A DNA stretch of 64,000 nucleotides. Source: a virus. Taxonomy: Duplodnaviria; Caudoviricetes. The stretch covers positions 3,710 through 67,709 of IMG/VR virus record IMGVR_UViG_3300033072_001056; one strand, written 5' to 3'. This document shows positions 2,421 through 61,889 of this stretch, one piece after another. The notes beneath the pieces were generated by a model. It had not been told where the DNA came from. It was given only the letters and a program-made list of their open reading frames with translations, and did not search any database. How positions within the stretch are numbered: position 1 is the stretch's first letter; every line of letters starts with the position of its first letter. The position numbers and the translations under genes were made by a program.

Positions 2421-2761
2421 TATTTTTTTGGTTTTAAATTAAACTTCAACATTTTGTTTTCTTTGGTGTAGAAGTAAAGAACGTTTTCGCTTGTTAGTAG
2501 CATAGAATAAATATATGTTCCATCTGTTGTCGAGTATAAAGCTCCTTGTAAATTTCTTTTTTCGTCAAGCAATAATCTTTTGTTTGTGATTGATAGTACT
2601 TGGTCGAAAAGTTCAATTTGCGAATCGTTAATTTTGAATTTCCCTGATTTGCTAATTGAGAAAAATTCCCCAACCTCATCCCTAACAAAAATCTCTCTAT
2701 ACTCATATTCTTGCCCAAAAGCAAAACTACAAACAAGCAAAAACGTTATCAGCCACTTCAT
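2420..2761 (-). CDS. Hypothetical exported protein
   Basis: N-terminal signal-like MKWLITFLLVCSFAFGQ. Confidence 0.55.
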   Translation of the reverse strand: MKWLITFLLVCSFAFGQEYEYREIFVRDEVGEFFSISKSGKFKINDSQIELFDQVLSITNKRLLLDEKRNLQGALYSTTDGTYIYSMLLTSENVLYFYTKENKMLKFNLKPKK

Positions 2762-3708: not shown

Positions 3709-3709
3709 T

Positions 3710-4690
3710 TTACTTCTTTTTAGGGGTTAGTTCGAGTTTTTTGTCAGCGTAAAGAATAATTAATTCTTCGTCGTCTTCAGATATAGCTGGTAAGCATTTT
3801 CCCAATTCCTCCATGCTTTTTGATTTTTCAATGTGATTTTTCACTCTTTCGCGTTCTTTCGTTTCGTTTACCGCTGTTACATCGAGAGCAACTTCTTCGT
3901 GGTCTACATATTCTGCTTCTACGTCTACCGATTCTCCATTGGTGAAATTGTCATTTTTGATTACCGCTTGGTCGGCCAATACCGCTCTTTGCATTTCAAT
4001 ACTTAACGGAGCGTTTTTAGACAAGTTCAATTTAGTAACTGTCTTCAACGCCATCGCAGAGAATTCGTCTTTCCAAAGCCCGGTTCCAAATTTTTTGTAA
4101 GTCTGAGAATATTTTTTTGCGTGAGCCTCTACTTCTTCGGTTGTCATATAAAAAGACGACTCGAATCCATTAAGCAATTTGAAATAACTCAAATACCCGA
4201 TTACCGGTTTTGATAATCTTTCTTTAGAGTCTTGAATCCATTCGAATTTCATTTCTCCGGACATGCGGTCAAAATACACTAATTCGCCTTGACGAACATC
4301 GGTGTCGTTCATTTTAAGGAATTGGCCGGAACGTTGCGCTAAATTCTTGAAGCCACGATACCCCAATTGAAACTGCGCCACATCTTTAAACGTTCCATCC
4401 GGCTGTTTTGTTTTGTAAGGAACAATGTAGGCAAGCCCTAAATTTGAGTTAATCGGCAAGTCCAAAGAAGCAGCTAAAAGCGCAGCGGTGTAAACAGAAT
4501 TTTGATCCGCTTTCTGTAACAAAGGATTTGAGTTTACGACTGATAGCACAGACGATATAAACCCCACTCCTTTTTGGCCGAGAATTTCGGTAAATTTATT
4601 TTTCACTCCTTCTGAATTCAAAAAAGTTGAAAGAGCTTTAACTCCGGTTGCCGGCGCTTGATTTTGATTTGTTGTCGTTACGTTTGACAT
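3710..4690 (-). CDS. recT: RecT-family single-strand annealing protein
   Basis: LGLAYIVPY, AQFQLGYRGFKNLAQRSGQ, W..EFSAMALKTV. Confidence 0.92.
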   Translation of the reverse strand: MSNVTTTNQNQAPATGVKALSTFLNSEGVKNKFTEILGQKGVGFISSVLSVVNSNPLLQKADQNSVYTAALLAASLDLPINSNLGLAYIVPYKTKQPDGTFKDVAQFQLGYRGFKNLAQRSGQFLKMNDTDVRQGELVYFDRMSGEMKFEWIQDSKERLSKPVIGYLSYFKLLNGFESSFYMTTEEVEAHAKKYSQTYKKFGTGLWKDEFSAMALKTVTKLNLSKNAPLSIEMQRAVLADQAVIKNDNFTNGESVDVEAEYVDHEEVALDVTAVNETKERERVKNHIEKSKSMEELGKCLPAISEDDEELIILYADKKLELTPKKK

Positions 4691-18842: not shown

Positions 18843-19142
18843 TTATAGAACGAGAAGCAAATCCGAATACACTACGCTTTTATACGTCACTCCGTCAATT
18901 GTAATGTCGCTTGATTTGTAGTTGTCGTACATAACGGTACTGCCTTCTTTTATTTTGCTATCAGAAAGCTCGGATTCTATCAAATTGCCAATTGACAAAA
19001 CCGTTCCTTTTCTGTACTTCTCATTCTTCTCAGTAGCAGACGAAAGGTCTAATCCGCCACTTGTCAAATTCTTTGTTTTTTCTTCTCTAATAATCACGTT
19101 GTAATTCAACGCTTGCCCCGGGAAATTATTGCTCGACTCCAT
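18843..19142 (-). CDS. groES: Co-chaperonin GroES
   Basis: VIIREE...TSGGL...KGTVLSIG...KEGSTVMY. Confidence 0.85.
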   Translation of the reverse strand: MESSNNFPGQALNYNVIIREEKTKNLTSGGLDLSSATEKNEKYRKGTVLSIGNLIESELSDSKIKEGSTVMYDNYKSSDITIDGVTYKSVVYSDLLLVL

Positions 19143-20703
19143 AGGTTCCTCTTTTGTTGTAAATGATGTTATCTGTCATAATCAATGTGTTGCTTGCGGA
19201 AACAGCATTAATCAATGCGTGTTTGATTGCTTTTGTAGAGTCTACGATTCCGGCTTCAATCATATCTACTTCTTTGTAGTTTTTAACGTCGTAGCCCATA
19301 GGGTATTTCCCTATTTTAATACTATTGTCTACAGATGCATTTGATAGTATTTTGTTTAAAGGAGCAATTATTGACTCACTTACAATTTTTGATTTGCATA
19401 CAAAAATACTAGAAGCTCTAAAAAGAGCAACTCCGCCTCCCGCTAAAACACCTTCTTCTCTTGCCGAACGAACAGCACAAACGGCATCATCAACGCGATC
19501 AATTTTCTCTTGCAATTCACTTTCGATAATACTGCCTACTTTTATGATGGAAACACCACCTGATAGTTTTGAAATACGTTCTTTGTTGTATTTCTTTTCC
19601 AATTGGCTTTTTGAAGAATTGGCTATTTGCTCAAGTTCGGCAATTTTAGACTTGATTTTGTCTAATACAGCATCAGTCAAATTAGGAGTTACAATAGTAT
19701 CGGTTTTGCCCGAAACAACTTTTTTACAAGTTCCCATAAACTTCGCTTCACGACCTTTAAAGTCGTCACCCGATAATGGTGTGATTAACTGAGTTTCGCA
19801 AATCATAGCAATATCGTTTAGGTAATCTCTGCGTTTGTTTCCGAAACTTGGCGCATTGACAAGCATACAACTTAGTTTTCCTGATATTACATTTTGCAAA
19901 ATCACATTTTTCACGGGGAAAGATTGAGAATCTGACCAATCGGCAATAACCACAATTTGTCTATTGTTTGCCAAGGCAAATTCTAAGAACGGTTGTATTT
20001 GTCTGAACGTTTTAAATGTGATGTTTGCGCAAACAATTAGCGGATTGTCTTCAAATTCGCAAGTTCTGTTCATAAAATTATTGATGAACAACTCATCTGC
20101 CAATGCTCCTTCTACAAGCGTACCGTCAACGTGGTCTAAATACGTTTCTTCATTTACGCTTCTCGAATAAGATACTGAACCGTACTCTCCCGCTTTAATA
20201 AAAGCATCAGCTACAATCTTGGCGATTTCTTCATCTGAATTTGCCGACGTGTGTGCGATGTCGTAGATTAATTTATCGGTAACGGGAATAGAGATTTCGT
20301 CTAAGTATTTAATGATTAAATCTCGGGATTTTTCAATTTCGTTCTTTACGTCAATTGGCGATTTTCCTTCTTTTATTGCCTTTAAAGAGTTTTCAAAAAA
20401 CGCTTGTAAAAGAACTATAGTACAAGTTGTAGAATCACCAGCGTAATCAACCGTTCTTTGGGACGCTTGTTTGGCAATTTCGCAAGCCATAGATTCAACG
20501 GGGTCGTCAAGAAAAATTGATTGAAGTGTTTTGTAGCCGTCTTTCGTAGGCTCAGGAATTCCAAATTGAGATTCGACAAGAACTGTTCTCCCTCTGTAGC
20601 CCATTGTCGAAGAAACGACTTTTGATAATTTAGTAAGACCGCTCAATAGTCTTTCTTTAGCATCTTCATCAGACGCAATAGTTTTGAGAATTCTTTCGCT
20701 CAT
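19126..20703 (-). CDS. groEL: Phage chaperonin GroEL
   Basis: TMGYRGR, TKDG, AGDSTT, ERISKLSGGVS, DDAVCAVRSAREEGVLAGGG, GIVDSTK; no GGM tail. Confidence 0.95.
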   Translation of the reverse strand: MSERILKTIASDEDAKERLLSGLTKLSKVVSSTMGYRGRTVLVESQFGIPEPTKDGYKTLQSIFLDDPVESMACEIAKQASQRTVDYAGDSTTCTIVLLQAFFENSLKAIKEGKSPIDVKNEIEKSRDLIIKYLDEISIPVTDKLIYDIAHTSANSDEEIAKIVADAFIKAGEYGSVSYSRSVNEETYLDHVDGTLVEGALADELFINNFMNRTCEFEDNPLIVCANITFKTFRQIQPFLEFALANNRQIVVIADWSDSQSFPVKNVILQNVISGKLSCMLVNAPSFGNKRRDYLNDIAMICETQLITPLSGDDFKGREAKFMGTCKKVVSGKTDTIVTPNLTDAVLDKIKSKIAELEQIANSSKSQLEKKYNKERISKLSGGVSIIKVGSIIESELQEKIDRVDDAVCAVRSAREEGVLAGGGVALFRASSIFVCKSKIVSESIIAPLNKILSNASVDNSIKIGKYPMGYDVKNYKEVDMIEAGIVDSTKAIKHALINAVSASNTLIMTDNIIYNKRGTYGVEQ

Positions 20704-29290: not shown

Positions 29291-31951
29291 ATGAAAAATT
29301 TATCAGCAGATATTGAGATTGCTATTAAAGACGCAATTTCCGGAATGAATTTAGACATTAACATCTTAGATGTTGATGATGACAAATTAGCTACATTGAT
29401 GTCTTCTCGATTAGAATCATTTTCAGCCACAAAGGAAATGATAAAGCTTTGGCAAGAATCACCTAACGCGCCAAGCCAAGCAAAACTTAGAAAAAACGCA
29501 GAGGAACTTATAAAATCGGGAGAAAATTCGATAGAAGTACTTCGTCAAGCGCTTAGAAAAAAAATAGCCTTTAGCGAATTAGACACAGAGAAGTACGGAA
29601 AGGCTATTAAGTCCAAGCCCGTAATTTTTAAGGCAATTAACGAGATTAATGCCGGAGTACTATCTTTGAAACTTCAGTTAGACGCAGACCAATTAGACTT
29701 CAAAGAACGCGAATTTCGACGTGGATTTCCCGAGAAATTTGCTTCGCAAGAATTTTTTCCCGCAAAAGATTATCACAAGGAATGGTATGACAAAGAAACC
29801 GATTCGGTAATGATTTGTCCGCTTGGCACAAAAGGGAAAGTGATTACTCTTGACGGATTAAACATTATGCTTCCGGCGCCACCAAAATCAAAAAAGAAAA
29901 TACTTTTCAGTAATTTACCAAAAGAAGAACAGTATTGGCGAAGAATCGAACCTCCTCAAGGGCTTACTCCGGAAAACGAAGATGTGTACTACGATTTTAT
30001 TATCGAGGAATTCCGTAAGCGTAGGGAGGGAGTTTGGTTTATGAATAACGGTGAACCGGTATATCTTACCCCGGCGCATTATATGGCGTTACAATGGGTG
30101 AAAATGTTAGATACCGGCTCGTTTATGGATTTCAGATATGCGCAAGCAGAAATGTTTTACTTCACGCGCGCGTGTGTTTTAGATCCGCGATGTTTAGGAG
30201 AGCTGTTTGTAAAGTCACGTCGTACCGGTTTTACCTATCAGATTATTTGCGAAATGATAAATGACGGAACCGGAACATCAAATGCCAAACTTGGTATGAT
30301 TTCAAAAACCGGTGATGATGCCCAAGAAGCATTTTTAAAAATGACTTATGGTATTCAAAACTTACCATTCTTTTTTATACCGGTAGTCAAAGGCAAAATT
30401 GACAGTAAAACAGAAGTTGAATTTGCCAAGCCTTCAGATTCTAGTAAGGTTGCCAAAAAGAAAAAAGACAATAGTACCGATGATTACTTGAATACTTTGA
30501 TGAATTGGAAAACGACTACTGAATCTGCTTATGACGGACAAAGAATGTATCGTTTGTTAATTGACGAGGCGTCAAAACCACTACCCCCATTTAATCTTGA
30601 AACTTATTGGGGACGTGTATCTCCAACCATTAATAACGGTGGTAGGATTGTAGGTAAAATATACGTTGGTTCAACGGTAAACCCTATGAAACTTGGTGGG
30701 GACAAATTCTTGAGAATGTACAAAGGCGCTATGGTTTCAAAAAGAGACAAGGACACTCAAAGAACACCAAACGGTCTGTACGCCTACTTCTTGCCAGCTC
30801 ATAAAAACATGGAATTATTTACCGATAAATACGGAGTTTGTCATACTGTTGTACAGCCGGGCGAATCGTTTACCAATGTTTACGGAACTGAAATATTTGA
30901 AGGGTCAATTCAATATTTGGAAAATATCCGTCGCCAAAAAAGAAAGCAATCGGACATTTTGTACAATGAGGAATTGCGCGCTAATCCAATGACTGTTGAA
31001 GAAGCATTTAGAGATGAAGCTAAGGCAAGTATGTTTAATCTCGAGAAGATAAATGACCAAATTGCTTATAATGATTCTCAAGATATTGAGCAAAAACAAC
31101 TTGTTCGCGGTAATTTCCAATGGAAAGACGGGCAAAAAGATTCTGTCGTAGAGTGGCATCCAAATCCAAGAGGTAGATTTTTACTAAGTTGGATTCCACC
31201 TAAAGAATTACAGAATAAATGGGAGATGAAAGTCAATATGTTTGGTGGAAGAAGCAAGCATCCGTCTAATGAAGATTTAGGATGTCTTGGTATTGACTCT
31301 TATGATATTAATTCGACAGTTGATTCTAAATTAGAAAACACAGAGAACGGAAGCGAATGGTCGGGAGGTTCTAAAGGAGCAATATCCGGAGTTACTTCTA
31401 AATTCACATTGAAAGATGCCCCGAGCAACTCTTTCTTTTTAGAGTATATTGCCCGACCGGAAACAGCCGAGATGTTTTTTGAAGATTGTTTAATGGCTTG
31501 TGTGTTTTATGGTATGCCGGCGCTTGTCGAAAATAACAAAGCACGATTGCTTTATCACTTTAAAAACAGAGGTTACCGAGGGTTTTGTCTTAGCCGATTT
31601 GACAAGCCTTCTAACAGATTAAGTCCTACCGAAAAAGAAATTGGCGGAATTCCTTCAAACTCCGCGGACGTTATTCAAATGCACTATACTGCAATTGAGG
31701 CTTATGTAGAAAAATACGTTGGGTATTATACTCAAGGAGATGATTTAGCTCCGGTAAGAGAAGAAAATGAAATTGGTTCAATGCCGTTTAACAGAACATT
31801 GCGCGATTGGGCAAGTTTTAATATTTCAGACAGAACAAAATCGGATATTTCAATTGCCTCGGGTTATGCCTTAATGGGTGTAAACAGACATAGTTACAAG
31901 TTTCAAAACGAAGCACCGGCGCCAATTGCTTTTAAAATTCGTTATAATTAG
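29291..31951 (+). CDS. terL: Terminase large subunit with an ~150 aa N-terminal extension
   Basis: Walker A KSRRTGFT, Walker B LLIDEASK, nuclease GIDSYD, C-terminal D..IASGYALM. Confidence 0.9.
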   Translation: MKNLSADIEIAIKDAISGMNLDINILDVDDDKLATLMSSRLESFSATKEMIKLWQESPNAPSQAKLRKNAEELIKSGENSIEVLRQALRKKIAFSELDTEKYGKAIKSKPVIFKAINEINAGVLSLKLQLDADQLDFKEREFRRGFPEKFASQEFFPAKDYHKEWYDKETDSVMICPLGTKGKVITLDGLNIMLPAPPKSKKKILFSNLPKEEQYWRRIEPPQGLTPENEDVYYDFIIEEFRKRREGVWFMNNGEPVYLTPAHYMALQWVKMLDTGSFMDFRYAQAEMFYFTRACVLDPRCLGELFVKSRRTGFTYQIICEMINDGTGTSNAKLGMISKTGDDAQEAFLKMTYGIQNLPFFFIPVVKGKIDSKTEVEFAKPSDSSKVAKKKKDNSTDDYLNTLMNWKTTTESAYDGQRMYRLLIDEASKPLPPFNLETYWGRVSPTINNGGRIVGKIYVGSTVNPMKLGGDKFLRMYKGAMVSKRDKDTQRTPNGLYAYFLPAHKNMELFTDKYGVCHTVVQPGESFTNVYGTEIFEGSIQYLENIRRQKRKQSDILYNEELRANPMTVEEAFRDEAKASMFNLEKINDQIAYNDSQDIEQKQLVRGNFQWKDGQKDSVVEWHPNPRGRFLLSWIPPKELQNKWEMKVNMFGGRSKHPSNEDLGCLGIDSYDINSTVDSKLENTENGSEWSGGSKGAISGVTSKFTLKDAPSNSFFLEYIARPETAEMFFEDCLMACVFYGMPALVENNKARLLYHFKNRGYRGFCLSRFDKPSNRLSPTEKEIGGIPSNSADVIQMHYTAIEAYVEKYVGYYTQGDDLAPVREENEIGSMPFNRTLRDWASFNISDRTKSDISIASGYALMGVNRHSYKFQNEAPAPIAFKIRYN

Positions 31952-31952
31952 T

Positions 31953-31983
31953 TTTGGTAGATTAAAAAATATTACTATATTTG
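31953..31983 (+). promoter_or_regulatory. Promoter of tRNA array 1
   Basis: TTTG-N19-TATATTTG. Confidence 0.85.
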
Positions 31984-32000
31984 CCTCAAATAAAGAAGAA

Positions 32001-32075
32001 ATGAAAAAAATGATTACCATAAAAACGATTGCAAGAGTTGGGGATAATTTTCCAAGCAAGGGGACTATGGTGTAA
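32001..32075 (+). CDS. Leader peptide 1 (MKKMITIKTIARVGDNFPSKGTMV)
   Basis: Short ORF between promoter and terminator; codons 2-16 match the array-1 tRNAs. Confidence 0.8.
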   Translation: MKKMITIKTIARVGDNFPSKGTMV

Positions 32076-32099
32076 ATTTTGTTTAGTTTTAACACATAA

Positions 32100-32137
32100 A
32101 AAATCCCCTAATAACATTAGGGGATTTTTATTTTTTT
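32100..32137 (+). terminator. Attenuator terminator 1
   Basis: ATCCCCTAAT-AAC-ATTAGGGGAT plus T-tract; left arm also pairs with leader AGGGGA (32059-64). Confidence 0.85.
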
Positions 32138-32211
32138 GGGGGCGTATGTTTCAAGGCTGACGACTTTGATTTGCAATCAGAGTGAGGTGATTTCGATTAT
32201 CACCGTCTCCA
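32138..32211 (+). tRNA. tRNA-Ala(UGC)
   Basis: Cloverleaf, loop TT-TGC-AA, G3:U70. Confidence 0.85.
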
Positions 32212-32226
32212 CAACAATAAGACAAT

Positions 32227-32256
32227 ATGAAAACAAGTAAAAAGTTTAAGAAGTAA
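32227..32256 (+). promoter_or_regulatory. Lys-rich minigene MKTSKKFKK upstream of tRNA-Lys
   Basis: 5 of 9 codons are Lys; followed by mutually exclusive hairpins at 32257-32292. Confidence 0.65.
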
Positions 32257-32288
32257 TCTGCTCTCAATGATTGGGAGTAGAAATCTAT

Positions 32289-32361
32289 TCCCTCTAAACA
32301 TTATTGGTGGATGTACCAAACTTTTAATTTGGGAAGCCGTGTTCGAATCACGGAGGGGGAA
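32289..32361 (+). tRNA. tRNA-Lys(UUU)
   Basis: Cloverleaf, loop CT-TTT-AA. Confidence 0.9.
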
Positions 32362-32366
32362 CGAAA

Positions 32367-32439
32367 CGGAATATAGCTCAATTGGTGGAGCAATCGCCTG
32401 ATACGCGAGAGGTTATAGGTTCAAGTCCTTTTATTCCGA
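32367..32439 (+). tRNA. tRNA-Ile(GAU)
   Basis: Cloverleaf, loop CT-GAT-AC. Confidence 0.92.
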
Positions 32440-32445
32440 CAAAAC

Positions 32446-32518
32446 GCGAGTATGGTGTCAATGGTTAACATTAGAGACTTCCAATCTCAAGATGTCAGTT
32501 CGATTCTGACTACTCGCT
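32446..32518 (+). tRNA. tRNA-Gly(UCC)
   Basis: Cloverleaf, loop CT-TCC-AA, U73. Confidence 0.92.
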
Positions 32519-32523
32519 CAAAA

Positions 32524-32596
32524 GGTCTATAGGTCAAATGGGTAAGATGTCCGGCTGTCGCCCGGTACGGAGAGGGTTCGAATCCCTCATAGACCG
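32524..32596 (+). tRNA. tRNA-Asp(GUC)
   Basis: Cloverleaf, loop CT-GTC-GC, G73. Confidence 0.9.
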
Positions 32597-32602
32597 CTAA
32601 AT

Positions 32603-32675
32603 GCTTCTGTAATTCAATTGGTAGAAACCCGCATTTGTAACGCGGAAGTTGCAGGTTCGACTCCTGTCAGAAGCT
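32603..32675 (+). tRNA. tRNA-Thr(UGU)
   Basis: Cloverleaf, loop TT-TGT-AA; A31-C39 mismatch. Confidence 0.88.
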
Positions 32676-32680
32676 CAATT

Positions 32681-32751
32681 GCCCAATTTGCATAACGGAA
32701 GTGCCGTTGTTTTACACGCAACAGCAGGGTGTTCGATTCACTCATTGGGTA
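32681..32751 (+). tRNA. tRNA-Val(UAC)
   Basis: Cloverleaf, loop TT-TAC-AC. Confidence 0.88.
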
Positions 32752-32756
32752 CAAAT

Positions 32757-32827
32757 GTCGGTATAGTTCAACGGAAGAATAAGACCCTTCTAAGGTTTTG
32801 ATGAGAGTTCGAGTCTCTCTACCGATT
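32757..32827 (+). tRNA. tRNA-Arg(UCU)
   Basis: Cloverleaf, loop CT-TCT-AA. Confidence 0.9.
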
Positions 32828-32832
32828 CAATA

Positions 32833-32909
32833 GGGCTTGTATCGCCTCTGACTCATAATCAGTAGAAAGCGTAATCGGTCACACGGCGGTTCAATTCCGT
32901 CCAAGCCCA
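32833..32909 (+). tRNA. Atypical CAU tRNA (Ile2-like) with the D-arm-like hairpin 3' of the anticodon arm
   Basis: Perfect acceptor and T arms; anticodon arm CTGA-CTCATAA-TCAG starts 9 nt after the acceptor strand. Confidence 0.7.
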
Positions 32910-32913
32910 CAAA

Positions 32914-32985
32914 GGAAGTATGGTGAAATGGTATCACGACAGACTGTTAATCTGTTAGTTTCAAGTTCGAGTCTTGATATTTCCG
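32914..32985 (+). tRNA. tRNA-Asn(GUU)
   Basis: Cloverleaf, loop CT-GTT-AA, G73. Confidence 0.92.
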
Positions 32986-32992
32986 CTAAAAA

Positions 32993-33023
32993 TTTGATAA
33001 TTTGAATTTTATTTTTACATTTG
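32993..33023 (+). promoter_or_regulatory. Promoter of tRNA-Met and array 2
   Basis: TTTG-N19-TACATTTG. Confidence 0.85.
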
Positions 33024-33026
33024 CAG

Positions 33027-33098
33027 GGCGTGAAGGTGTAATCGGTTGCATTGGAGTCTCATAAACTCTACGGGGTGGTTCGAATCCACGACACGCTA
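33027..33098 (+). tRNA. tRNA-Met(CAU), elongator type (Ile2 not excluded)
   Basis: Loop CT-CAT-AA, G2:C71 and C3:G70; lacks the initiator GGG/CCC stem. Confidence 0.75.
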
Positions 33099-33112
33099 CA
33101 AAGACATATATT

Positions 33113-33184
33113 ATGAGAAATTTAAGTTTATGTTCGTTTTATTGGTTGTCGTTTAAAAACGACACGGGATATAGCGCGCATTAA
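33113..33184 (+). CDS. Leader peptide 2 (MRNLSLCSFYWLSFKNDTGYSAH)
   Basis: Codons 4-14 match the array-2 tRNAs. Confidence 0.8.
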   Translation: MRNLSLCSFYWLSFKNDTGYSAH

Positions 33185-33210
33185 ATTTACCTTGTAATTA
33201 TTTAAAAGCT

Positions 33211-33239
33211 AATCCCGTTCGAAAGTTCGGGATTTTTTT
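33211..33239 (+). terminator. Attenuator terminator 2
   Basis: AATCCCG...CGGGATT plus T5; left arm pairs alternatively with leader CGGGATATAGC (33165-75). Confidence 0.85.
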
Positions 33240-33242
33240 ATT

Positions 33243-33326
33243 GGGAGTAACGCTCGAATTGGTTAGGCGCTTGACTGTAAATCAGGTAATCTGCATAGAT
33301 AGGTGGTTCGAATCCATCTGCTCCCA
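33243..33326 (+). tRNA. tRNA-Tyr(GUA)
   Basis: Loop CT-GTA-AA, long variable arm. Confidence 0.9.
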
Positions 33327-33332
33327 CAAAAT

Positions 33333-33406
33333 AGCTGTATGGCGGAACGGTAGACGCATCAGACTTAAAATCTGTACAACTGTGGGTTCGACTCCCACTA
33401 CAGCCA
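33333..33406 (+). tRNA. tRNA-Leu(UAA) lacking the long variable arm
   Basis: Loop CT-TAA-AA; 6-nt variable region; A1-C72 mismatch. Confidence 0.85.
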
Positions 33407-33414
33407 CAAAAAAA

Positions 33415-33501
33415 GGAGGTATAACCCAAGTTGGTCTAAGGGGCGCTGTCTTGAAAACAGTTGGTCGTAATGGCGTGTAAGTTCGAGTCTTACTGCCTCC
33501 G
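33415..33501 (+). tRNA. tRNA-Ser(UGA)
   Basis: Loop CT-TGA-AA, long variable arm, G73. Confidence 0.92.
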
Positions 33502-33507
33502 CAAAAT

Positions 33508-33591
33508 GGAGAGTAAACTAATCAGGTGGTTAGACTTGTTTGCTAAACAATGGGTGGGTAAAACCTTGGGAATCGTGTTCTCTGCTCTCCG
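33508..33591 (+). tRNA. tRNA-Ser(GCU)
   Basis: Loop TT-GCT-AA, long variable arm, non-canonical T-loop ATCGTGT. Confidence 0.85.
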
Positions 33592-33600
33592 CTATAAATT

Positions 33601-33671
33601 GCTTCTCAGCGTAGGTTGTGCCAATCGGTCTCCAAAACCGTATTGTAAAGGTTCGAATCCTTTGAGTCGCG
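33601..33671 (+). tRNA. tRNA-Trp(CCA), degenerate acceptor and short D arm
   Basis: Loop CT-CCA-AA, canonical T arm, two acceptor mismatches. Confidence 0.72.
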
Positions 33672-33676
33672 CAAAA

Positions 33677-33749
33677 GGAAATTTGGCAGATAAGGTTATT
33701 GCGCTCGACTGAAAATCGAGAGGGCTCGGATCGTTACCGAGAATTTCCA
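33677..33749 (+). tRNA. tRNA-Phe(GAA)
   Basis: Loop CT-GAA-AA; T-loop ATCGTTA. Confidence 0.88.
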
Positions 33750-33754
33750 CAAAC

Positions 33755-33825
33755 GACAAGAAGCCTGACGGAGAAGGGTGCGGTCTGCAAAACCAAACAT
33801 CGCGGTTCGATTCCGCGTCTTGTCT
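33755..33825 (+). tRNA. tRNA-Cys(GCA)
   Basis: Loop CT-GCA-AA, U73. Confidence 0.88.
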
Positions 33826-33833
33826 CAAATTAG

Positions 33834-33905
33834 AACGCAATGCAAGATTCGAACTTGCGTCTTTTGGTTCGTAGCCAAAGATTTTTCCAATTAAACTAAT
33901 CGCGC
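33834..33905 (-). tRNA. tRNA-Arg(ACG)
   Basis: Loop CT-ACG-AA on the minus strand. Confidence 0.9.
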
Positions 33906-33910
33906 ATTTG

Positions 33911-33991
33911 TACGGACGAGAGGACTTGAACCTCCAAAGCTAACGGGTCTAAACCGCCAAGATGTGCCATTCTCAATAAAGCCACGTCCGC
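33911..33991 (-). tRNA. Atypical tRNA-Leu(UAG): enlarged D region, no long variable arm
   Basis: Acceptor and T arms intact; loop TT-TAG-AC; ~26-nt D region. Confidence 0.72.
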
Positions 33992-33996
33992 AATTG

Positions 33997-34068
33997 GGTG
34001 TTTTCGGGTCTCGAACCCTGTTCTCCGGATTCACAGTCCGGCACTTTACCTGTTAAGCTAAAAACACC
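33997..34068 (-). tRNA. tRNA-His(GUG)
   Basis: Loop CT-GTG-AA; encoded G-1:C73. Confidence 0.88.
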
Positions 34069-34074
34069 ATATAG

Positions 34075-34147
34075 TTTCTTTGTCAAGACTCGAACTTGAA
34101 CAACGAGAGTCAAAGTCTCGTATGCTAACCAATTACATCACAAAGAA
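34075..34147 (-). tRNA. tRNA-Gln(UUG)
   Basis: Loop CT-TTG-AC; U1:A72. Confidence 0.9.
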
Positions 34148-34153
34148 TTTTAG

Positions 34154-34225
34154 TAACGCATACGGGATTCGAACCCGTGATTAGAAATAGAAAGTTTCTT
34201 GTGCTGACCACTACACTAATGCGTC
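34154..34225 (-). tRNA. tRNA-Glu(UUC)
   Basis: Loop CT-TTC-TA (U at position 37). Confidence 0.88.
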
Positions 34226-34230
34226 TTTTG

Positions 34231-34307
34231 TCTAGTTGGCAGGAATCGAACCTGCGTAACTCCCGCTTCCAAGGCGGGCGAGTATATCCATCTGCTCCGA
34301 CAACTAG
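34231..34307 (-). tRNA. tRNA-Pro(UGG)
   Basis: Loop CT-TGG-AA; C1:G72, A73. Confidence 0.9.
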
Positions 34308-34311
34308 AAAT

Positions 34312-34340
34312 AAAAAAAGCCTCCCAATTACGGAAGGCTT
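34312..34340 (-). terminator. Attenuator terminator 3
   Basis: AAGCCTTCCG-TAAT-TGGGAGGCTT plus T-tract; left arm pairs alternatively with leader CGGGAGG (34379-85). Confidence 0.85.
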
Positions 34341-34365
34341 TAGCTAATATATTTTATTTACATAT

Positions 34366-34440
34366 TTACACGCTTGTTCCTCCCGATAAAATATCCGGCT
34401 CTTGAAGACGTTGTTCAGTATGTAATTTTAATCTTTTCAT
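34366..34440 (-). CDS. Leader peptide 3 (MKRLKLHTEQRLQEPDILSGGTSV)
   Basis: Codons 7-15 match the array-3 tRNAs; near-leaderless ATG. Confidence 0.8.
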   Translation of the reverse strand: MKRLKLHTEQRLQEPDILSGGTSV

Positions 34441-34444
34441 ATTG

Positions 34445-34474
34445 CAAATATATGAATACTTTTTAAGTCTGCAA
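34445..34474 (-). promoter_or_regulatory. Promoter of tRNA array 3
   Basis: TTG-N19-TATATTTG on the minus strand. Confidence 0.85.
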
Positions 34475-34484
34475 GTATTTATAG

Positions 34485-34531
34485 AAAAATAATATGAATT
34501 CTACAACTTATATAAAGTTTTTCTATCTTTG
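34485..34531 (+). promoter_or_regulatory. Late-class promoter (portal)
   Basis: AAAAATAATAT box starting 39 nt before TATCTTTG. Confidence 0.65.
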
Positions 34532-34554
34532 TTGTGTAAATATTTATCAGACAA

Positions 34555-36984
34555 ATGGATAATAGTAAGAACGGCAATTTCAATATAAGCCCAATGGTTA
34601 GTTTTCCAAGTCAATTGGAGCCATTCGAAGTAAAAAAAACTAAAGAGTGGGGGCTAAGATTGGCTCAGTCAATACAAAGCGATTGGTTTTACGGGATGAA
34701 TACCGGAAACTTTTTGTCTTCTCAATTCAATTTGCAAAGACGTGATTTTTTACAAAGACGTTTATACGCAAAAGGATTGCAGTCAATGGACAAATACATA
34801 GAGCAATTCAAATCAGACGGAGACAAGTCGTTCTTAAACCTTCCAACTAAACCGATTAGTATTATCCCTAAATTAGTTGATGTGGTTGTTAATGGGATGG
34901 CCGACAGAGGTTATTCTATTCGTGCTACTTCAATTGACCCGATTGGTCACAAAGAAAGAGTAGCTTACAGAGAGCAGATTGAAACCGACGTTCTTTCAAA
35001 AGACATAATTGTTCAAGCAAAAGAAAAATTAGGCGTAGATGTGGCTAGTATGCCACTAGAACAACTTCCGGAGACCGACGAAGAATTGAACTTGCACATG
35101 GAACTTGAGTACAAGCAATCTATCGAGCTTTCTCAAGAATTGGCAATTGAGCAAGTAATGAATGACAACCGGTACAACGACAAAATAGACAGAATGGTTA
35201 AAAAAGACCTAACTATTTTGGGAGTTTCTTGGGTTAAACATCGTTTTGTTCCGGACAAAGGAATTGTAATCGAGTATGTAAATCCGGAAAACAAAGTGCA
35301 ATCATATACCGACGACCCTTATTTTGAAGATTGCTATTACCACGGAGAATTTAAGACGGTTCCGCTAACTCAAATTTATACGGATTACCAATGGCTTAAT
35401 CTTCCGGAAAACGCAGATATAAAAGCGCAAGTTGAATATTCAGCAAACGGATGGTGGGAATACAATTTGATTGCAAGCAACGACAGAATTAAAGGAGTTG
35501 CCAATTTGCTTTATTTTACATACAAAACCACAAGACCAAAGCAAAGAAAGATAAAACTCAAAGCCACCGGTGAGAAAAGAATTATCCCAATGGAATACAA
35601 AGGGAATCCGGACAAAAACCCAAACATTAAAATAACAACCGTAGAGGAAGAAGTTTTAATGGAAGGAGTTTATGTTTTAGGAACAGACATAATGCTTAAA
35701 TGGGAAGTTGCCGAATCTATGGTTAGACCAAAGTCTAACAGACAAAAGGTAATTGACCAATACATAGGTGTTGCTCCTAATATGGAAAGAGGTTATATTG
35801 ATTCGCCGGTTGCTAGAATGATACCTGTAGAAGACCAATTAAACATACTCGAATTAAAAGGCGCTCAAATCATTCAGAAAATACAACCTGACGGGTTTAT
35901 GATTGATGTGGATGCAATTGCCGAGTTAGATTTAGGAAACGGCTCCAAATTAACCGTTCAAAATGTTGTAGATATGTTTTGGCAAACCGGTAGTATTTTC
36001 ACTAGAAGTTTCGGAGCAAGTGGCGACCCAATGTATTCTAAGCCTATTACTGAATTAAGAACCGGAGACTCTATAACTAAACTACAAGCACTTACCGCTC
36101 AAAAAGCGCAGTATATGGATCAGATGCGTGACGTTATCGGATTAAACAAAGTTTCCGATGCTTCAACACCTGATAAAGATTCTTTAGTAGGAGTTCAAAA
36201 GCTTGCTTCTTTAAATTCAAATATTGCGACTCGTCATATTTTAGATGGGGCTTCTGACATAACAAAAAGAATTGCATTAGCTATTACATATCGAATTCAC
36301 GACTTATTAAAGTTCACCGAATTAAAAGAAGATTTTTCAAGAAAAATAGGTTCGACATCGGTTAAGACGTTAGAGTCTGTAAAAGATTTGCATTTGCACG
36401 ATTTCGCAATTTACTTAGATTTACATTTAGACGATGAGGAACGCGCGAAATTAGAACAAGATATGTCATTGGCAATTGACAAAGGGATGATGAGCATTCA
36501 AGATAAATACAAGGTTTTGAATATTAAAAACTTCAAACTTGCGTTGTCTTATATGACAATTTTGGTCAATAAATATCAGAAAAAACAACAAGAGCAAAAA
36601 GCCCAAGAGTACAAGATACAAGCCGATGAGAACATACGTGCTGCACAAAGCGCAGAGCAAGCTCGTCAGCAAACGGCTCAAATGATTAGTCAATTTGATA
36701 TGGCCAAGCAACAATTGGTTAATGACGGATTGATACAAAAAGAGCAAGTCAAAGGACAGGAAGACCGTTCTACATTGGAAATTAAAATCGAAGGAGATTT
36801 GATGGTTGCCCAAGCACAATCAGGTGTTAAAATGCAGATTCAAGAAGAAATGGAAAACCGTAAGGATGAAAGAGAGAATCTTAGATACACCAATCAAAGC
36901 AAGGAAAACTACAAAAAAGAAACCGGCGGTGCGCCAATTGACTTCACTCAAAACGATGAAATAAACGAAGTGTTTAAAATGTAA
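34555..36984 (+). CDS. Portal protein (crAss/phi14:2-like)
   Basis: Size and position after terL; FPSQ...K...EWG, RRLYAKG.Q, PISIIPK.VDVVVNGM motifs. Confidence 0.85.
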   Translation: MDNSKNGNFNISPMVSFPSQLEPFEVKKTKEWGLRLAQSIQSDWFYGMNTGNFLSSQFNLQRRDFLQRRLYAKGLQSMDKYIEQFKSDGDKSFLNLPTKPISIIPKLVDVVVNGMADRGYSIRATSIDPIGHKERVAYREQIETDVLSKDIIVQAKEKLGVDVASMPLEQLPETDEELNLHMELEYKQSIELSQELAIEQVMNDNRYNDKIDRMVKKDLTILGVSWVKHRFVPDKGIVIEYVNPENKVQSYTDDPYFEDCYYHGEFKTVPLTQIYTDYQWLNLPENADIKAQVEYSANGWWEYNLIASNDRIKGVANLLYFTYKTTRPKQRKIKLKATGEKRIIPMEYKGNPDKNPNIKITTVEEEVLMEGVYVLGTDIMLKWEVAESMVRPKSNRQKVIDQYIGVAPNMERGYIDSPVARMIPVEDQLNILELKGAQIIQKIQPDGFMIDVDAIAELDLGNGSKLTVQNVVDMFWQTGSIFTRSFGASGDPMYSKPITELRTGDSITKLQALTAQKAQYMDQMRDVIGLNKVSDASTPDKDSLVGVQKLASLNSNIATRHILDGASDITKRIALAITYRIHDLLKFTELKEDFSRKIGSTSVKTLESVKDLHLHDFAIYLDLHLDDEERAKLEQDMSLAIDKGMMSIQDKYKVLNIKNFKLALSYMTILVNKYQKKQQEQKAQEYKIQADENIRAAQSAEQARQQTAQMISQFDMAKQQLVNDGLIQKEQVKGQEDRSTLEIKIEGDLMVAQAQSGVKMQIQEEMENRKDERENLRYTNQSKENYKKETGGAPIDFTQNDEINEVFKM

Positions 36985-60261: not shown

Positions 60262-60462
60262 TTAATTTTTCTTTACTGACGTGTGTTCTAAAAATTTAGA
60301 AAGAGTGAAATTTTCATAATGTTCTCGAATTCTTTTTCCAATAGCCGATTCTTTAACTTTAAATATAAATTCTCTGCTAATGCACGGAGTTTCAAGTATG
60401 AATTGTTTTTGAGCAATTTCACGCTTAAAATCCTCTAATTCATTTACATTCTTACTTTCCAT
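60262..60462 (-). CDS. Hypothetical protein
   Basis: ORF coupled to the integrase stop. Confidence 0.5.
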   Translation of the reverse strand: MESKNVNELEDFKREIAQKQFILETPCISREFIFKVKESAIGKRIREHYENFTLSKFLEHTSVKKN

Positions 60463-61705
60463 TTTCCCAATATTTTTGAAGTTTGTCAGCGTGTTCTTTT
60501 TTCGTTGTCTGAACGTATTTTAGTAGCATTGACGGATTTGACCATCCAAGTACTGCCATTATAGAATTATCCGGTATTTTACCGTATAAATTAGACGCCA
60601 TTGAGCGACGGCAAATATGCGTGGTGAATAATTCATATCTCTTGTAATACCCGATTTCTTTTCTTTTAGTTTTGGAATTCCACTTTTTACCATAGACTAA
60701 ATTGTCAAATCCGCAAATCATCCCAATAGTCTTTATTGCTTTCCCAAATTCATACTCATTCATCTTAGGCGGTAATTGACCAAATCGACTTGCTATAATC
60801 TCCTTTACAATTCTGTGCAATGGTATCACTACTTTAGTCTTTGTTTTTTGAGTAGTAATGGTAATGTAGTCATCTTTGATATTCGACAAGTCTAATCTCG
60901 TTAAGTAATCAGACACACGAAGCCCAGTAAATATACCTATCAATAAATTGTCTTTGGCAACTTGAAGTTTTTCGTCAAAACTAAAATCGGTAGTGTAAAT
61001 AACTTCTACTTCTTTTTCATTCAAATAAACACCGTCAATATCTTCTTCTTTTTCAAGGTAGATTCTTTTGTTGTAAGCTGATGATATTTTGATTCCTTTT
61101 TCACTTGCACGGTTGCAAAAGAATTTCAATCTGCCGATAATTCTGTCAATGGTAGAAACGTTGTAGTCAAGATGTTCTTGGAGATAATTGACAAATTCGT
61201 AAAAATCGTCAACATCAATATCCTTCATCAAAATTTTTCGATTTGTAAATCGTTCAAATTCAACAAGCAAACCCACGGCATTTTGATATTGACCAAGCAT
61301 TGTTTTACCGATTACTTTGTTATGAGATACCTTCCAAGCCTTACCATCTGTTTTTAACCATTCATTTGCAAATGCGGATAAGTAAATATTTGCGTCAGAA
61401 TTGACTAATTTCTTTTCTCCCGACGGTCTGTCAAAAACATCTGAGATAATCGATTGTAGCCAACGTTTGCCAATGATTTGTCCTGTCACATAGCTATTGT
61501 TGTATTCTGATAGTATGGTTTTCTTTAATTCGAGAAGTTTCTCGTTCACAATTGGCGAATTCGTCAATAATTGCAGTTCAGAATCCCAACCATCAGCCTC
61601 CACAAATATCTCAAGCGCACAAGAAATATCCAAGTCTTTTTTCTGACATCGGACAATAACTCTCGATTGCTTTTTGGTTTGGTAAAGTTTGAAAGATACA
61701 TTCAT
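60452..61705 (-). CDS. int: Tyrosine recombinase / phage integrase (Bacteroidetes type)
   Basis: TGLRVSD, QKT, THICRRS, LGWSNPSMLLKY catalytic motifs; ATG at 61705. Confidence 0.9.
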   Translation of the reverse strand: MNVSFKLYQTKKQSRVIVRCQKKDLDISCALEIFVEADGWDSELQLLTNSPIVNEKLLELKKTILSEYNNSYVTGQIIGKRWLQSIISDVFDRPSGEKKLVNSDANIYLSAFANEWLKTDGKAWKVSHNKVIGKTMLGQYQNAVGLLVEFERFTNRKILMKDIDVDDFYEFVNYLQEHLDYNVSTIDRIIGRLKFFCNRASEKGIKISSAYNKRIYLEKEEDIDGVYLNEKEVEVIYTTDFSFDEKLQVAKDNLLIGIFTGLRVSDYLTRLDLSNIKDDYITITTQKTKTKVVIPLHRIVKEIIASRFGQLPPKMNEYEFGKAIKTIGMICGFDNLVYGKKWNSKTKRKEIGYYKRYELFTTHICRRSMASNLYGKIPDNSIMAVLGWSNPSMLLKYVQTTKKEHADKLQKYWENGK

Positions 61706-61715
61706 AATTACTGAT

Positions 61716-61889
61716 TTACTTTTTGATTTCAAATTGTTTTCTCATAGCAAGAATTACCTGCTTGAAATTTTCTTTTTGTTTGCTTGGAACTTGAATAGAT
61801 AAAATCACACCAAAATCGTCAATATAAATTGTTGGTCGGCCGGCATTTGATTTTTTTTCAGCTCCTTTATTCGTGAGTTGTTTGCCCAT
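61716..61889 (-). CDS. Small basic protein with AGRP motif (57 aa, not in ORF track)
   Basis: MGKQLTNKGAEKKSNAGRPTIY...LSIQVPSKQKENFK. Confidence 0.5.
   Translation of the reverse strand: MGKQLTNKGAEKKSNAGRPTIYIDDFGVILSIQVPSKQKENFKQVILAMRKQFEIKK

Follow-up and report, generated by a model that had tools for sequence, protein, structure and literature searches.

In the trp and his attenuators it is established that ribosome stalling reports charged tRNA. In E. coli, attenuation by the pheM leader controls pheST, a gene of the translation machinery. The tRNA arrays of T4/T5-like phages, vibriophages and mycobacteriophages have been proposed to offset tRNA degradation or the action of anticodon nucleases. 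No account of trp-operon-style attenuation of tRNA genes and no regulatory leader for compensatory phage tRNA arrays were found in the literature searched, which agrees with the claim, made in a preliminary description of the locus studied here, that such control had not been described for phage tRNA genes.

We have analyzed a window of 64,000 nucleotides, the whole stretch considered in this work, from a complete viral contig of 67.7 kb that belongs to an uncultured freshwater/wastewater phage. An accessory cassette of 2.5 kb (31952-34473), flanked by the terminase and portal genes of this flavobacterial phage, carries 24 tRNA genes sorted into three arrays, which together form a near-complete set for all 20 amino acids. 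Each array is preceded by an ORF of 23-24 codons, a spacer of 24-26 nt and an intrinsic terminator. The three units are likely to be ribosome-mediated transcription attenuators gating the tRNA genes of the phage itself; no expression, Term-seq or ribosome data are available.

As in the trpL, hisL, leuL, pheL, thrL and ilvL attenuators, the promoter is followed at once by a short ORF whose regulatory codons match what the regulated genes supply, the 5' arm of an intrinsic terminator is able to pair with an upstream segment instead, and the stop codon lies where a ribosome finishing translation would block antiterminator pairing; mixed-codon sensing is shared with the multivalent ilv and thr leaders. 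Unlike amino-acid operon attenuators, they are carried by a phage, have Bacteroidota promoters and, probably, leaderless mRNAs, rely on a sensor of 6-10 codon families with 1-4 codons each rather than a single-codon run, and regulate tRNAs instead of enzymes, so that the product would feed directly back on the sensor. A classical amino-acid operon leader was rejected, as tRNAs rather than biosynthetic enzyme genes lie downstream, the sequences are unrelated and no Rfam leader family was matched, the best score (Phe_leader, 27.8 bits vs. a gathering score of 55) being below threshold and covering the terminator of unit 3 only. The pheM leader peptide likewise senses decoding and governs a part of the decoding machinery that serves the amino acid sensed, whereas pheST is cellular, responds to one amino acid and encodes a synthetase rather than tRNAs. 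T-box riboswitches also bring about transcription antitermination according to the state of a specific tRNA and read a codon-like specifier, but they bind the uncharged tRNA directly without a ribosome and have one specifier codon and a conserved T-box motif, in contrast with the ATG-to-stop ORFs of many codons in the phage units. A T-box identity was rejected, since no Rfam T-box model matched at E <= 1 across 31500-35000. The T4/T5-like, vibriophage and mycobacteriophage arrays resemble the present ones in their near-complete tRNA set (all 20 amino acids) and accessory cassette, but the accounts given of them concern the tRNAs themselves.

Organization of the three units

The features of the cassette are listed in Table 1. 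The layout of short ORF, spacer, terminator and tRNAs put forward in the preliminary description held for all three units, each in its proposed place, whereas the promoter assumed before every leader held for units 1 and 3 and failed for leader 2, which has none of its own. A further correction is that six of the 24 cassette tRNAs escape ARAGORN when it is run at default settings. The sorting of tRNAs into arrays followed the first base of the codon (UNN, CNN, and ANN/GNN).

Table 1. Positions in the window of the elements of units 1, 2, and 3.
Feature	Position	Strand	Remarks
-7 box TAnnTTTG, Bacteroidota-type promoter, unit 1	31976..31983	+	read from sequence
Possible -33 element TTTG, unit 1	31953-31956	+	read from sequence
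Leader ORF 1, 24 codons	32001..32075	+	kept in L007, L136, L140
Antiterminator segment, unit 1 (ORF nt 58-65)	32058..32065	+	pairs with terminator 5' arm, duplex -10.9 kcal/mol
Intrinsic terminator 1, 14-bp stem	32099..32137 (hairpin 32099-32129, T run to 32137)	+	terminator scan and fold
tRNA array 1: Ala, Lys, Ile, Gly, Asp, Thr, Val, Arg(UCU), odd CAU tRNA, Asn	32138..32986	+	
Nested Lys-rich mini-ORF, 9 codons	32227-32256	+	with its hairpin, directly 5' of tRNA-Lys
11-bp hairpin after Lys mini-ORF	32257-32281	+	directly upstream of tRNA-Lys
Odd CAU tRNA, array 1	32833-32909	+	
-7 box heading transcript that carries leader 2	33016..33023	+	
tRNA-Met(CAU)	33027-33099	+	13 nt upstream of leader ORF 2
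Leader ORF 2, 23 codons	33113..33184	+	
Antiterminator segment, unit 2 (ORF nt 52-59)	33164..33171	+	
Intrinsic terminator 2, 7-bp stem, 10-nt loop	33211..33241 (hairpin 33211-33234, then T run)	+	fold
tRNA array 2: Tyr, Leu(UAA), Ser(UGA), Ser(GCU), Trp, Phe, Cys	33243..33826	+	
-7 promoter box, unit 3	34445..34452	-	ends 4 nt before leader 3 ATG
Leader ORF 3, 24 codons	34366..34440	-	
Antiterminator segment, unit 3 (ORF nt 55-63)	34378..34386	-	
Intrinsic terminator 3, 11-bp stem	34308..34341 (stem 34341-34316, then T run)	-	terminator scan and fold
tRNA array 3: Pro, Glu, Gln, His, Leu(UAG), Arg(ACG)	33833..34307	-	Leu(UAG) anticodon taken from Infernal alignment

For comparison, 24 units from nine phages of at least six lineages were curated by us (uncultured relatives, the Cellulophaga phages phi38:1/Calle, phi4:1, phi10:1, and phi19:1, and Maribacter phage Panino). 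These units are phylogenetically related, and the assignment of a few odd tRNAs was manual. Their leader ORFs span 20-32 codons. The TAnnTTTG box lies 4 nt upstream of the ATG in nine units, which come from several phage lineages, or 12-32 nt upstream of it (17-26 nt in all type-1 leaders of relatives), and for W-group leader 2 it is found upstream of tRNA-Met. The short distance in unit 3 probably implies a leaderless mRNA, an inference from sequence. The box and tRNA-Met ahead of leader 2, whose layout is identical in L007, L136, and L140, would represent the unattenuated head of the leader 2 transcript, a reading inferred from sequence alone. The Lys mini-ORF and its hairpin are kept in L007 and L136 and are missing, along with tRNA-Lys, in L140.

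Leader codons and downstream tRNAs

Within the window, every tRNA species of each array had at least one cognate codon in its own leader and codons for the other two arrays were few, the diagonal of the own/other matrix being 19/23, 13/22, and 8/23 for leaders 1, 2, and 3, respectively. Codons 2-16 of leader 1 are all read by array 1 and codons 4-14 of leader 2 are all read by array 2, with its seven tRNAs covered; codons 7-15 of leader 3 hold His, Glu, Gln, Arg(CGT), Leu(CTT), and Pro. The leader codons that sample a given tRNA number only 1-4. The synonymous boxes fit the anticodons present (Arg AGA vs. CGT, Leu TTR vs. CTT, Ser AGT and TCG), and the codon match that had been claimed down to this level for Arg, Leu and Ser therefore held.

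It could be argued that the short ORFs are micropeptide genes or remain untranslated, that the terminators only insulate the arrays, and that the match arises from composition or chance. In favor of this, among the 301 short six-frame ORFs in the window 2-3% cover all the tRNAs of an array, the length of the matched-codon run alone is not unique, and no translation data exist. Random ORFs with phage codon usage attained full coverage at frequencies of 0.036, 0.0007, and 0.005 for the three arrays. Three full-coverage matches at three fixed positions are unlikely by chance, and it is the comparative data, not the window alone, that are decisive.

Across the 24 units, 242 of 336 codons at positions 2-15 were read by the leader's own array, vs. 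100 ± 19 under array permutation (p ~1e-5) and 219 ± 4.8, with a maximum of 240, when permutation was restricted to leaders of the same type (p ~1e-5). A codon in the own leader was present for 172 of 174 tRNA species, both misses being Met with the start codon excluded. Leader codons followed when a tRNA moved between arrays or was lost (24 units, nine phages). A test of covariation with the downstream tRNA set in related phages, which the preliminary description had put forward as able to refute its reading, was thus run and passed. L140 has no tRNA-Lys and no Lys codon in its leader-1 core; in Calle, phi38:1, and phi4:1, tRNA-Asn lies in array 2 and leader 2 has gained four Asn codons and lost Leu. 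Where Leu(UAA) belongs to array 3 (Calle, phi4:1, and Panino), leader 3 has TTA plus CTN, vs. CTN only in the W-group leader-3 cores. phi10:1 has tRNAs for Tyr, Trp, Phe, Ser, and Cys alone, the same five that make up its leader core; in L006 (tRNAs Tyr, Leu, Ser, Ser, and Leu) the core is restricted to S, L, and Y; phi19:1 and L022 have neither tRNA-Glu nor Glu in the leader core. Mismatches were Leu codons in the L022 core without a Leu tRNA and one AGT in phi10:1 without Ser(GCU), and the first 3-7 codons of type-3 leaders were unmatched. The order of sensor codons was shuffled among homologues while the set was retained, which argues that the codons rather than the peptide are functional. 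Nothing comparable appeared in three non-flavobacterial tRNA-rich phages subjected to the same scan as a control.

The ORFs, their codon match and its covariation are thus shown by sequence and comparison. The micropeptide or chance explanation is very unlikely given the permutation tests (p ~1e-5), conservation of the codon set but not of codon order or peptide sequence, covariation reaching the synonymous boxes, promoters 4 nt from the ATG in nine units, and control phages without such ORFs.

A different objection accepts the same hardware and changes the signal, the leaders reporting general translation or amino-acid status (starvation, growth rate, or infection stage) and timing tRNA synthesis instead of responding to shortage of particular tRNAs. 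Since stalling reports charged tRNA, a missing tRNA cannot be distinguished from a missing amino acid, and a sensor spanning 6-10 amino acids at once would be a good general gauge of translation. Against this, the match, which reaches synonymous boxes and follows single tRNAs as they are gained, lost or transferred between arrays, points to the supply of exactly these tRNAs as the controlled variable, and three different leaders would be superfluous in a general gauge. We therefore regard this alternative as unlikely.

Terminators and antiterminator pairing

In every unit, the hairpin and T run end 5-10 nt before the first tRNA. Terminator 2 was not detected by the scan tool because its loop exceeds 8 nt. 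The 3' segment of the ORF, located at nt ~50-65 in 22/24 units, formed a duplex of -9.7 kcal/mol with the 5' arm of its own terminator vs. -6.3 kcal/mol with foreign arms (p ~5e-6), a result that also holds for 14 non-redundant units; for the 5' part of the ORF the value was -2.3 kcal/mol. In all but one of the 24 units (23/24), 21-29 nt separate the stop codon from the terminator arm. The GGGG/CCCC pairing of unit 1 in the window becomes GAGG/CCTC in L007 and L136, and in L136, L140, and L022 a change in the segment of unit 3 is matched by one in the terminator arm. Terminators, covarying antiterminator pairing and constant geometry are thus shown as well, the pairing in silico.

Regarding the preliminary description, its G-rich segment complementary to the terminator arm held and co-varies across relatives. 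The competing hairpin it placed before this segment was confirmed in part, as unit 3 is the only one in which the two overlap, the hairpin adjoining the segment in units 1 and 2; an anti-antiterminator (1:2) was clear only in some units (L007_3, L136_1/3, L140_1/3, and L022_3).

In co-transcriptional folds the antiterminator formed when nt 1-39 or 1-48 were masked, but not with the ribosome at the stop codon. The full-length minimum-energy fold of unit 2 adopts antiterminator or terminator depending on which bases the ribosome masks, so it switches even at equilibrium. In units 1 and 3 the terminator (-16 to -17 kcal/mol) is more stable than the antiterminator (around -11 kcal/mol), which would therefore win only kinetically, as in trp. 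Untranslated full-length leaders folded better than shuffled sequences (z of -4.0, -2.9, and -2.6) and gave the terminator together with a closed 5' domain. When truncated, the three window units formed the antiterminator even in the absence of a ribosome, so that the untranslated default state is ambiguous.

The leaders might also be translated and codon-matched and yet act through Rho-dependent polarity, through pausing, or at the level of RNA processing or tRNA-precursor stability, the hairpins being constitutive terminators or processing signals. This is supported by the greater stability of terminators 1 and 3 relative to their own antiterminators, and by the Lys mini-ORF, whose hairpin has no U tract, so that at least one codon-matched ORF of the cassette is not coupled to a canonical terminator. 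However, neither the covariation of ORF 3' segment and terminator arm (24 units) nor the fixed stop-to-terminator spacing of 21-29 nt is needed for Rho or processing control, and we consider this possibility very improbable.

Proposed feedback circuit

The attenuator reading stands on comparative evidence, as leader codons and antiterminator co-vary in relatives. This supports the interpretation of the preliminary description; leader translation, stall-dependent read-through and the physiological trigger remain inferred, and the locus occurs in no RNA run. According to this model, host RNA polymerase would start at the Bacteroidota-type promoter and a ribosome would load immediately on the short leader, whose first ~15 codons would be a sample of those read by the downstream tRNAs. 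If all were decoded fast, the ribosome would reach the stop codon, which precedes the terminator by 24-26 nt, and cover ORF nt ~50-65, the terminator hairpin would form and transcription would end. If any one codon were slow, charged tRNA being scarce, the ribosome would stall upstream, the segment would pair with the terminator 5' arm and the polymerase would enter the array; newly charged tRNAs would then speed leader translation and close the gate again. The net circuit would be a negative feedback loop in which slow decoding by any one of 6-10 tRNA species suffices, as in an OR-gate. The phage thus probably makes each tRNA block only when its codons are decoded slowly, as inferred from sequence and comparison, and attenuators of this kind would give demand-driven feedback on phage tRNA synthesis. 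A point against this reading is that amino-acid starvation would open the gate too, a situation in which extra tRNA is useless.

In a bolder version, which is possible but for which there are no data on a link to anti-phage tRNA nucleases, the cassette would be a counter-defence module, self-contained and able to move horizontally. Each leader would act as a tripwire for loss of host tRNA through anticodon nucleases or phage- or host-induced tRNA decay, and resistant replacement tRNAs would be switched on only under attack. Were this true, the UNN, CNN, and ANN/GNN sorting and the Lys mini-ORF would mirror nuclease target classes. Defence-related tRNA cleavage had been named as the trigger in the preliminary description; it remains an inference on which no evidence presented here bears.

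Codon-matched small ORFs were also seen before annotated terminators ahead of a tRNA block in the Caulobacter phage phiCbK, with a different host and promoters and with longer leaders of ~30-45 codons.

Organization and setting of the tRNA cassette

The window represents most of a complete viral contig of 67.7 kb, in which a block of 2.5 kb between the large terminase and portal genes was devoid of long ORFs and harbored 24 tRNA genes, the whole set corresponding to all 20 amino acids. Three arrays were distinguished, each located behind a short ORF (the leader), an AT-rich spacer and a hairpin followed by a T run (see table). A spacer of 25-27 nt had been proposed in the preliminary description; its AT-rich character held and the measured length was 24-26 nt. 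ARAGORN detected 18 tRNAs at default settings and 22 at a lower threshold, and the Rfam tRNA model added a tRNA-Tyr, an odd CAU tRNA and a tRNA-Leu(UAG). The last of these displayed an enlarged D region of 21 nt and a short variable loop; an ARAGORN call of tRNA-Pro at 33910-33991 was rejected in favor of Leu(UAG) by Infernal alignment.

Features of the viral contig (window positions)
Feature	Position	Strand	Remarks
RecT and exonuclease genes	2761-4690		
GroEL-like chaperonin gene	19126-20703	-	
Large terminase gene	29291-31951		
Leader ORF 1	32001-32075	+	
Terminator hairpin and T run, unit 1	32099-32137		
Array 1 tRNAs			Ala, Lys, Ile, Gly, Asp, Thr, Val, Arg-UCU, CAU, Asn
Lys-rich mini-ORF and hairpin	32227-32281		between tRNA-Ala and tRNA-Lys
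Odd CAU tRNA	32833-32909		Rfam
tRNA-Met(CAU) with its -7 box	33016-33099		
Leader ORF 2	33113-33184	+	
Terminator hairpin and T run, unit 2	33211-33241		
tRNA-Tyr	33243-33326		Rfam
tRNA-Leu(UAG)	33911-33991	-	Rfam
Terminator hairpin and T run, unit 3	34341-34308		
Leader ORF 3	34440-34366	-	
Portal gene	34555-36984		
Integrase gene	60452-61732	-	

The presence of the cassette varied among related phages. In a sibling phage (L003) with a 99% identical terminase, this gene was joined directly to the portal gene, with about 17 nt in place of the cassette, and a single tRNA gene was found in 68.7 kb; in the comparison of window 31952-34473 with positions 9650-9700 of L003, the entire cassette was an indel. 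The cassette was inverted in another relative, L007. Among 80 loci related to the capsid protein of Cellulophaga phage phi10:1, only phi10:1 itself carried an array behind a leader, which identifies the arrays as accessory cassettes of sporadic occurrence. The cassette of the window recurred in near-identical form in other freshwater and wastewater assemblies (four DNA contig sets), in which no informative joints around the copies were found.

Array membership in the window (32138-34307) followed the first base of the codon: ANN and GNN in array 1, UNN (plus Ser AGY) in array 2 and CNN (plus Glu GAR) in array 3. Apart from a few relocated tRNAs, this three-way grouping was found again in Calle_1/phi38:1, phi4:1 and Maribacter phage Panino. 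At 33826-33833, arrays 2 and 3 are convergent, with about 6 nt and no terminator between their last genes, and this layout was kept in the relatives L007, L136 and L140; read-through from either side would be predicted to yield antisense tRNA transcripts.

Agreement between leader codons and downstream tRNAs

Every one of codons 2-16 of leader 1 (KKMITIKTIARVGDN) was read by array 1. Codons 4-14 of leader 2 (LSLCSFYWLSF) were all read by array 2, touching its seven tRNAs and both Ser boxes, and codons 7-15 of leader 3 (HTEQRLQEP) included all the amino acids of array 3, with CGT for Arg and CTT for Leu. The matrix of leaders by arrays was strongly diagonal, so that the earlier claim that the central codons of each leader are those of its own tRNAs, down to the synonymous box, held in the window. 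With respect to a match by chance, the tRNA set of a whole array was covered by 2-3% of 301 short six-frame ORFs of the window, and the probability of full coverage in random ORFs drawn from the phage codon usage was 0.036, 0.0007, and 0.005. Chance is thus an unlikely explanation for the window alone, yet the evidence is not overwhelming. Run length was discarded as a statistic, as stretches of 11 matched codons for array 2, or 7 for array 3, also appeared at other six-frame positions of this AT-rich window; coverage and permutation tests were used instead.

Relatives were collected through the terminase gene (L007, L006, and L022), the leader-1 DNA pattern (L136 and L140) and, for cultured phages, matching tRNAs (Cellulophaga phages phi19:1, phi10:1, Calle_1/phi38:1, and phi4:1, and Maribacter phage Panino). 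All of them contained leader/terminator/array units, and the curated set comprised 24 units from nine non-identical phages of at least six lineages; arrays were curated by the author, a few odd tRNAs being assigned by hand. Codons at positions 2-15 read by the own array amounted to 242 of 336, vs. 100 ± 19 when arrays were permuted. Permutation within leader type only (types 1, 2, and 3 heading the corresponding kinds of array), which strips the coarse three-group structure and tests fine covariation, gave 219 ± 4.8 with a maximum of 240 (P about 1e-5). These units share descent and the permutation tests ignore phylogeny; between lineages, tRNA sequences and leader peptides were very divergent, and the leader still tracked its array in each case. 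The leader of the respective array included a codon for 172 of 174 tRNA species; both exceptions were Met, when the start codon was left out.

Changes in the arrays were accompanied by changes in the leaders. Thus, L140 lacked tRNA-Lys and any Lys codon in the core of leader 1, and phi19:1 and L022 had neither tRNA-Glu nor Glu in the core, L022 showing in addition an extra tRNA-Tyr together with a Tyr codon. Calle_1, phi38:1, and phi4:1 presented tRNA-Asn in array 2 and a leader-2 core with four Asn codons and no Leu (YNNFSWYSNCSFSSYN). These three phages and Panino had Leu(UAA) in array 3 and both TTA and CTN in leader 3; leader-3 cores from the group of the window phage used only CTN for Leu. 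In phi10:1, with tRNAs for Tyr, Trp, Phe, Ser, and Cys only, the core was WSYSCFSYSF, and in L006 (Tyr, Leu, Ser, Ser, Leu) it was SLYLLLSYSL. The codon box in the leader matched the tRNA present for Leu, Arg, and Ser. The order of sensor codons differed among homologs while the set was kept, which argues for a constraint on codons and not on the peptide. The covariation of leader codons with the tRNA set, put forward in the preliminary description as a check in related phages, was therefore found, and both this covariation and the anatomy of the units are shown by these data.

Outside this set, the same scan detected no codon-matched leader ORFs in a crAss-like phage, a T4-like phage and an Acinetobacter phage with large arrays. 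A degenerate leader-2 pattern retrieved 27 stretches from IMG/VR, only phi10:1 itself and L006 being real; leader peptides 1 and 2 had no tblastn match among cultured phages, and blastn of the leader regions matched tRNAs only. In a partial check of Caulobacter phage phiCbK, small ORFs rich in the amino acids of the block preceded annotated terminators and tRNA blocks, as in the case of an ORF containing YRQFVRQIQVV ahead of Tyr, Phe, Val, Ile, Ile, Val, Gln, and Gln. Leaders were unannotated or recorded as "hypothetical protein" in databases. Full-text literature searches revealed no account of tRNA genes, whether of phages or otherwise, being controlled by attenuation, in agreement with the preliminary description, and a transcriptome paper on phi38:1 limits its tRNA discussion to host tRNA genes (PMC5335546).

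Alternative pairing, transcription signals, and proposed control

Every unit contained, at about nt 50-65 of the ORF, a segment with complementarity to the terminator 5' arm, and it changed along with that arm. Segment/arm pairs were GGGAGG/CCTTCC, GGAGG/CCTCC, GGGTGG/CCACTC, and GAGTGG/CCACTT in type 3 units and ranged from GGGG/CCCC to GAGG/CCTC in type 1. The mean duplex energy was -9.7 kcal/mol with the own arm vs. -6.3 with foreign arms (permutation P about 5e-6), the own arm being favored also in 14 non-redundant units; for the 5' part of the ORF the value was -2.3 kcal/mol. Transcripts were folded after being cut ahead of the 3' arm of the terminator, with the nucleotides covered by the ribosome masked. 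Masking nt 1-39 or 1-48, thus mimicking a stalled ribosome, led the segment to pair with the terminator arm, and no such pairing formed with the mask set for a ribosome at the stop codon. The distance from stop codon to terminator arm was 21-29 nt in 23 of the 24 units. Alternative pairing is thus shown in silico, and the earlier claim that the leader end pairs with the left arm of the terminator held at this level, with covariation across units; the competing hairpin claimed for each leader held only in part, a clean anti-antiterminator being found in some units only.

Even the full-length minimum-energy fold of unit 2 displayed the switch. The stability of the terminator (-16 to -17) exceeded that of the antiterminator (about -11) in units 1 and 3, where the choice must therefore be kinetic; minimum free energy alone was dropped as an argument, since the equilibrium fold of the whole leader favors the terminator in these two units. 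The trp leader likewise chooses kinetically. Untranslated leaders formed a closed 5' domain plus the terminator and folded better than shuffles (z = -4.0, -2.9, and -2.6).

Exactly 4 nt separated the end of the Bacteroidota -7 motif TAnnTTTG from the ATG in nine units from several phage lineages, window unit 3 included, which implies leaderless mRNAs and ribosome loading once the 5' end emerges. The motif lay 17-26 nt upstream of the ATG in type 1 units and, in type 2 units of the group of the window phage, before the tRNA-Met gene 13 nt ahead of the leader; a promoter preceding each ORF, as initially described, was therefore only partly supported. A sigma-70 promoter scan was uninformative for Bacteroidota promoters. 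The scan of ten larger ORFs identified RecT, exonuclease, a GroEL-like chaperonin, and an integrase. Host-type promoters and terminators are consistent with transcription by the host polymerase; a phage RNA polymerase remains possible, as the scan did not include the two ORFs of greatest length (1454 and 1530 aa).

Leader translation, stall-dependent read-through, and the trigger are all inferred from sequence alone, without experimental or RNA data. The leader would report the charged cognate tRNA, whatever its source, and, because the regulated product is the tRNA sensed, control would amount to a direct negative feedback loop in which the array members are the inputs of an OR-gate. The virus thus appears to gauge decoding speed per codon, replenishing exactly the tRNAs in short supply, without any protein and with about 130 nt of RNA for each array. 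The usual trigger could be host codon-usage mismatch, an anticodon nuclease or the decay of tRNAs in the course of infection, among which the sequence does not discriminate; the trigger originally suggested, cleavage or uncharging of host tRNAs, is inference only. To our knowledge, tRNA genes are not known to be controlled by attenuation; their control is thought to reside in promoters (growth rate, stringent response) and processing. If the proposal is true, it would bring a new target of regulation and a new type of logic (product-to-sensor feedback and a multi-codon OR-gate) to a textbook mechanism. It would also explain how phages afford large tRNA sets and move them between hosts with different tRNA pools, provide a readable genomic signature of the tRNAs that a phage expects to lose, and offer compact, programmable sensors of codon-specific decoding capacity. 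A direct test is feasible because the units occur in cultured pairs, namely Cellulophaga baltica with phi38:1, phi4:1, phi10:1, or phi19:1.

Additional elements and unusual tRNAs

A nested mini-ORF of nine codons (MKTSKKFKK) was the only one among 325 short ORFs of the window with at least five Lys; behind it lay an 11-bp hairpin lacking a U tract. The element was retained in L007 and L136, where Lys codons had changed synonymously, and was missing, along with tRNA-Lys, in L140; a separate Lys-specific control of unknown mechanism is possible.

The odd CAU tRNA had 4 nt in place of a normal D arm and a variable region of 18 nt; it may correspond to Ile2, since an ATA codon is conserved in type 1 leaders. 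The tRNA-Met(CAU), which has its own -7 box and is located 13 nt upstream of leader 2, lay outside any attenuator and had no initiator features (the three G:C pairs of the anticodon stem were absent); the same layout of tRNA-Met and leader 2 appeared in L007, L136, and L140. In phi19:1 and L022, a conserved element of 57-58 nt, not recognized as a tRNA by ARAGORN or Rfam, occupied the site between tRNA-Pro and tRNA-Gln where other phages have tRNA-Glu.

The phi19:1 leader and leader 2 of phi4:1, of different types, shared a C-terminal extension ending in GSDGLIG past the antiterminator segment, with a similar end (GVDGY) in leader 3 of Panino. The tRNA features in the Calle_1 record (MT732432.1) were off by 52 nt from the sequence, the CDS coordinates being correct. 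A conserved gene for a small hydrophobic protein of 48-49 residues was located between promoter and leader 1 in Calle_1 (L024, 2653-2799) and Panino (L142, 4269-4418).
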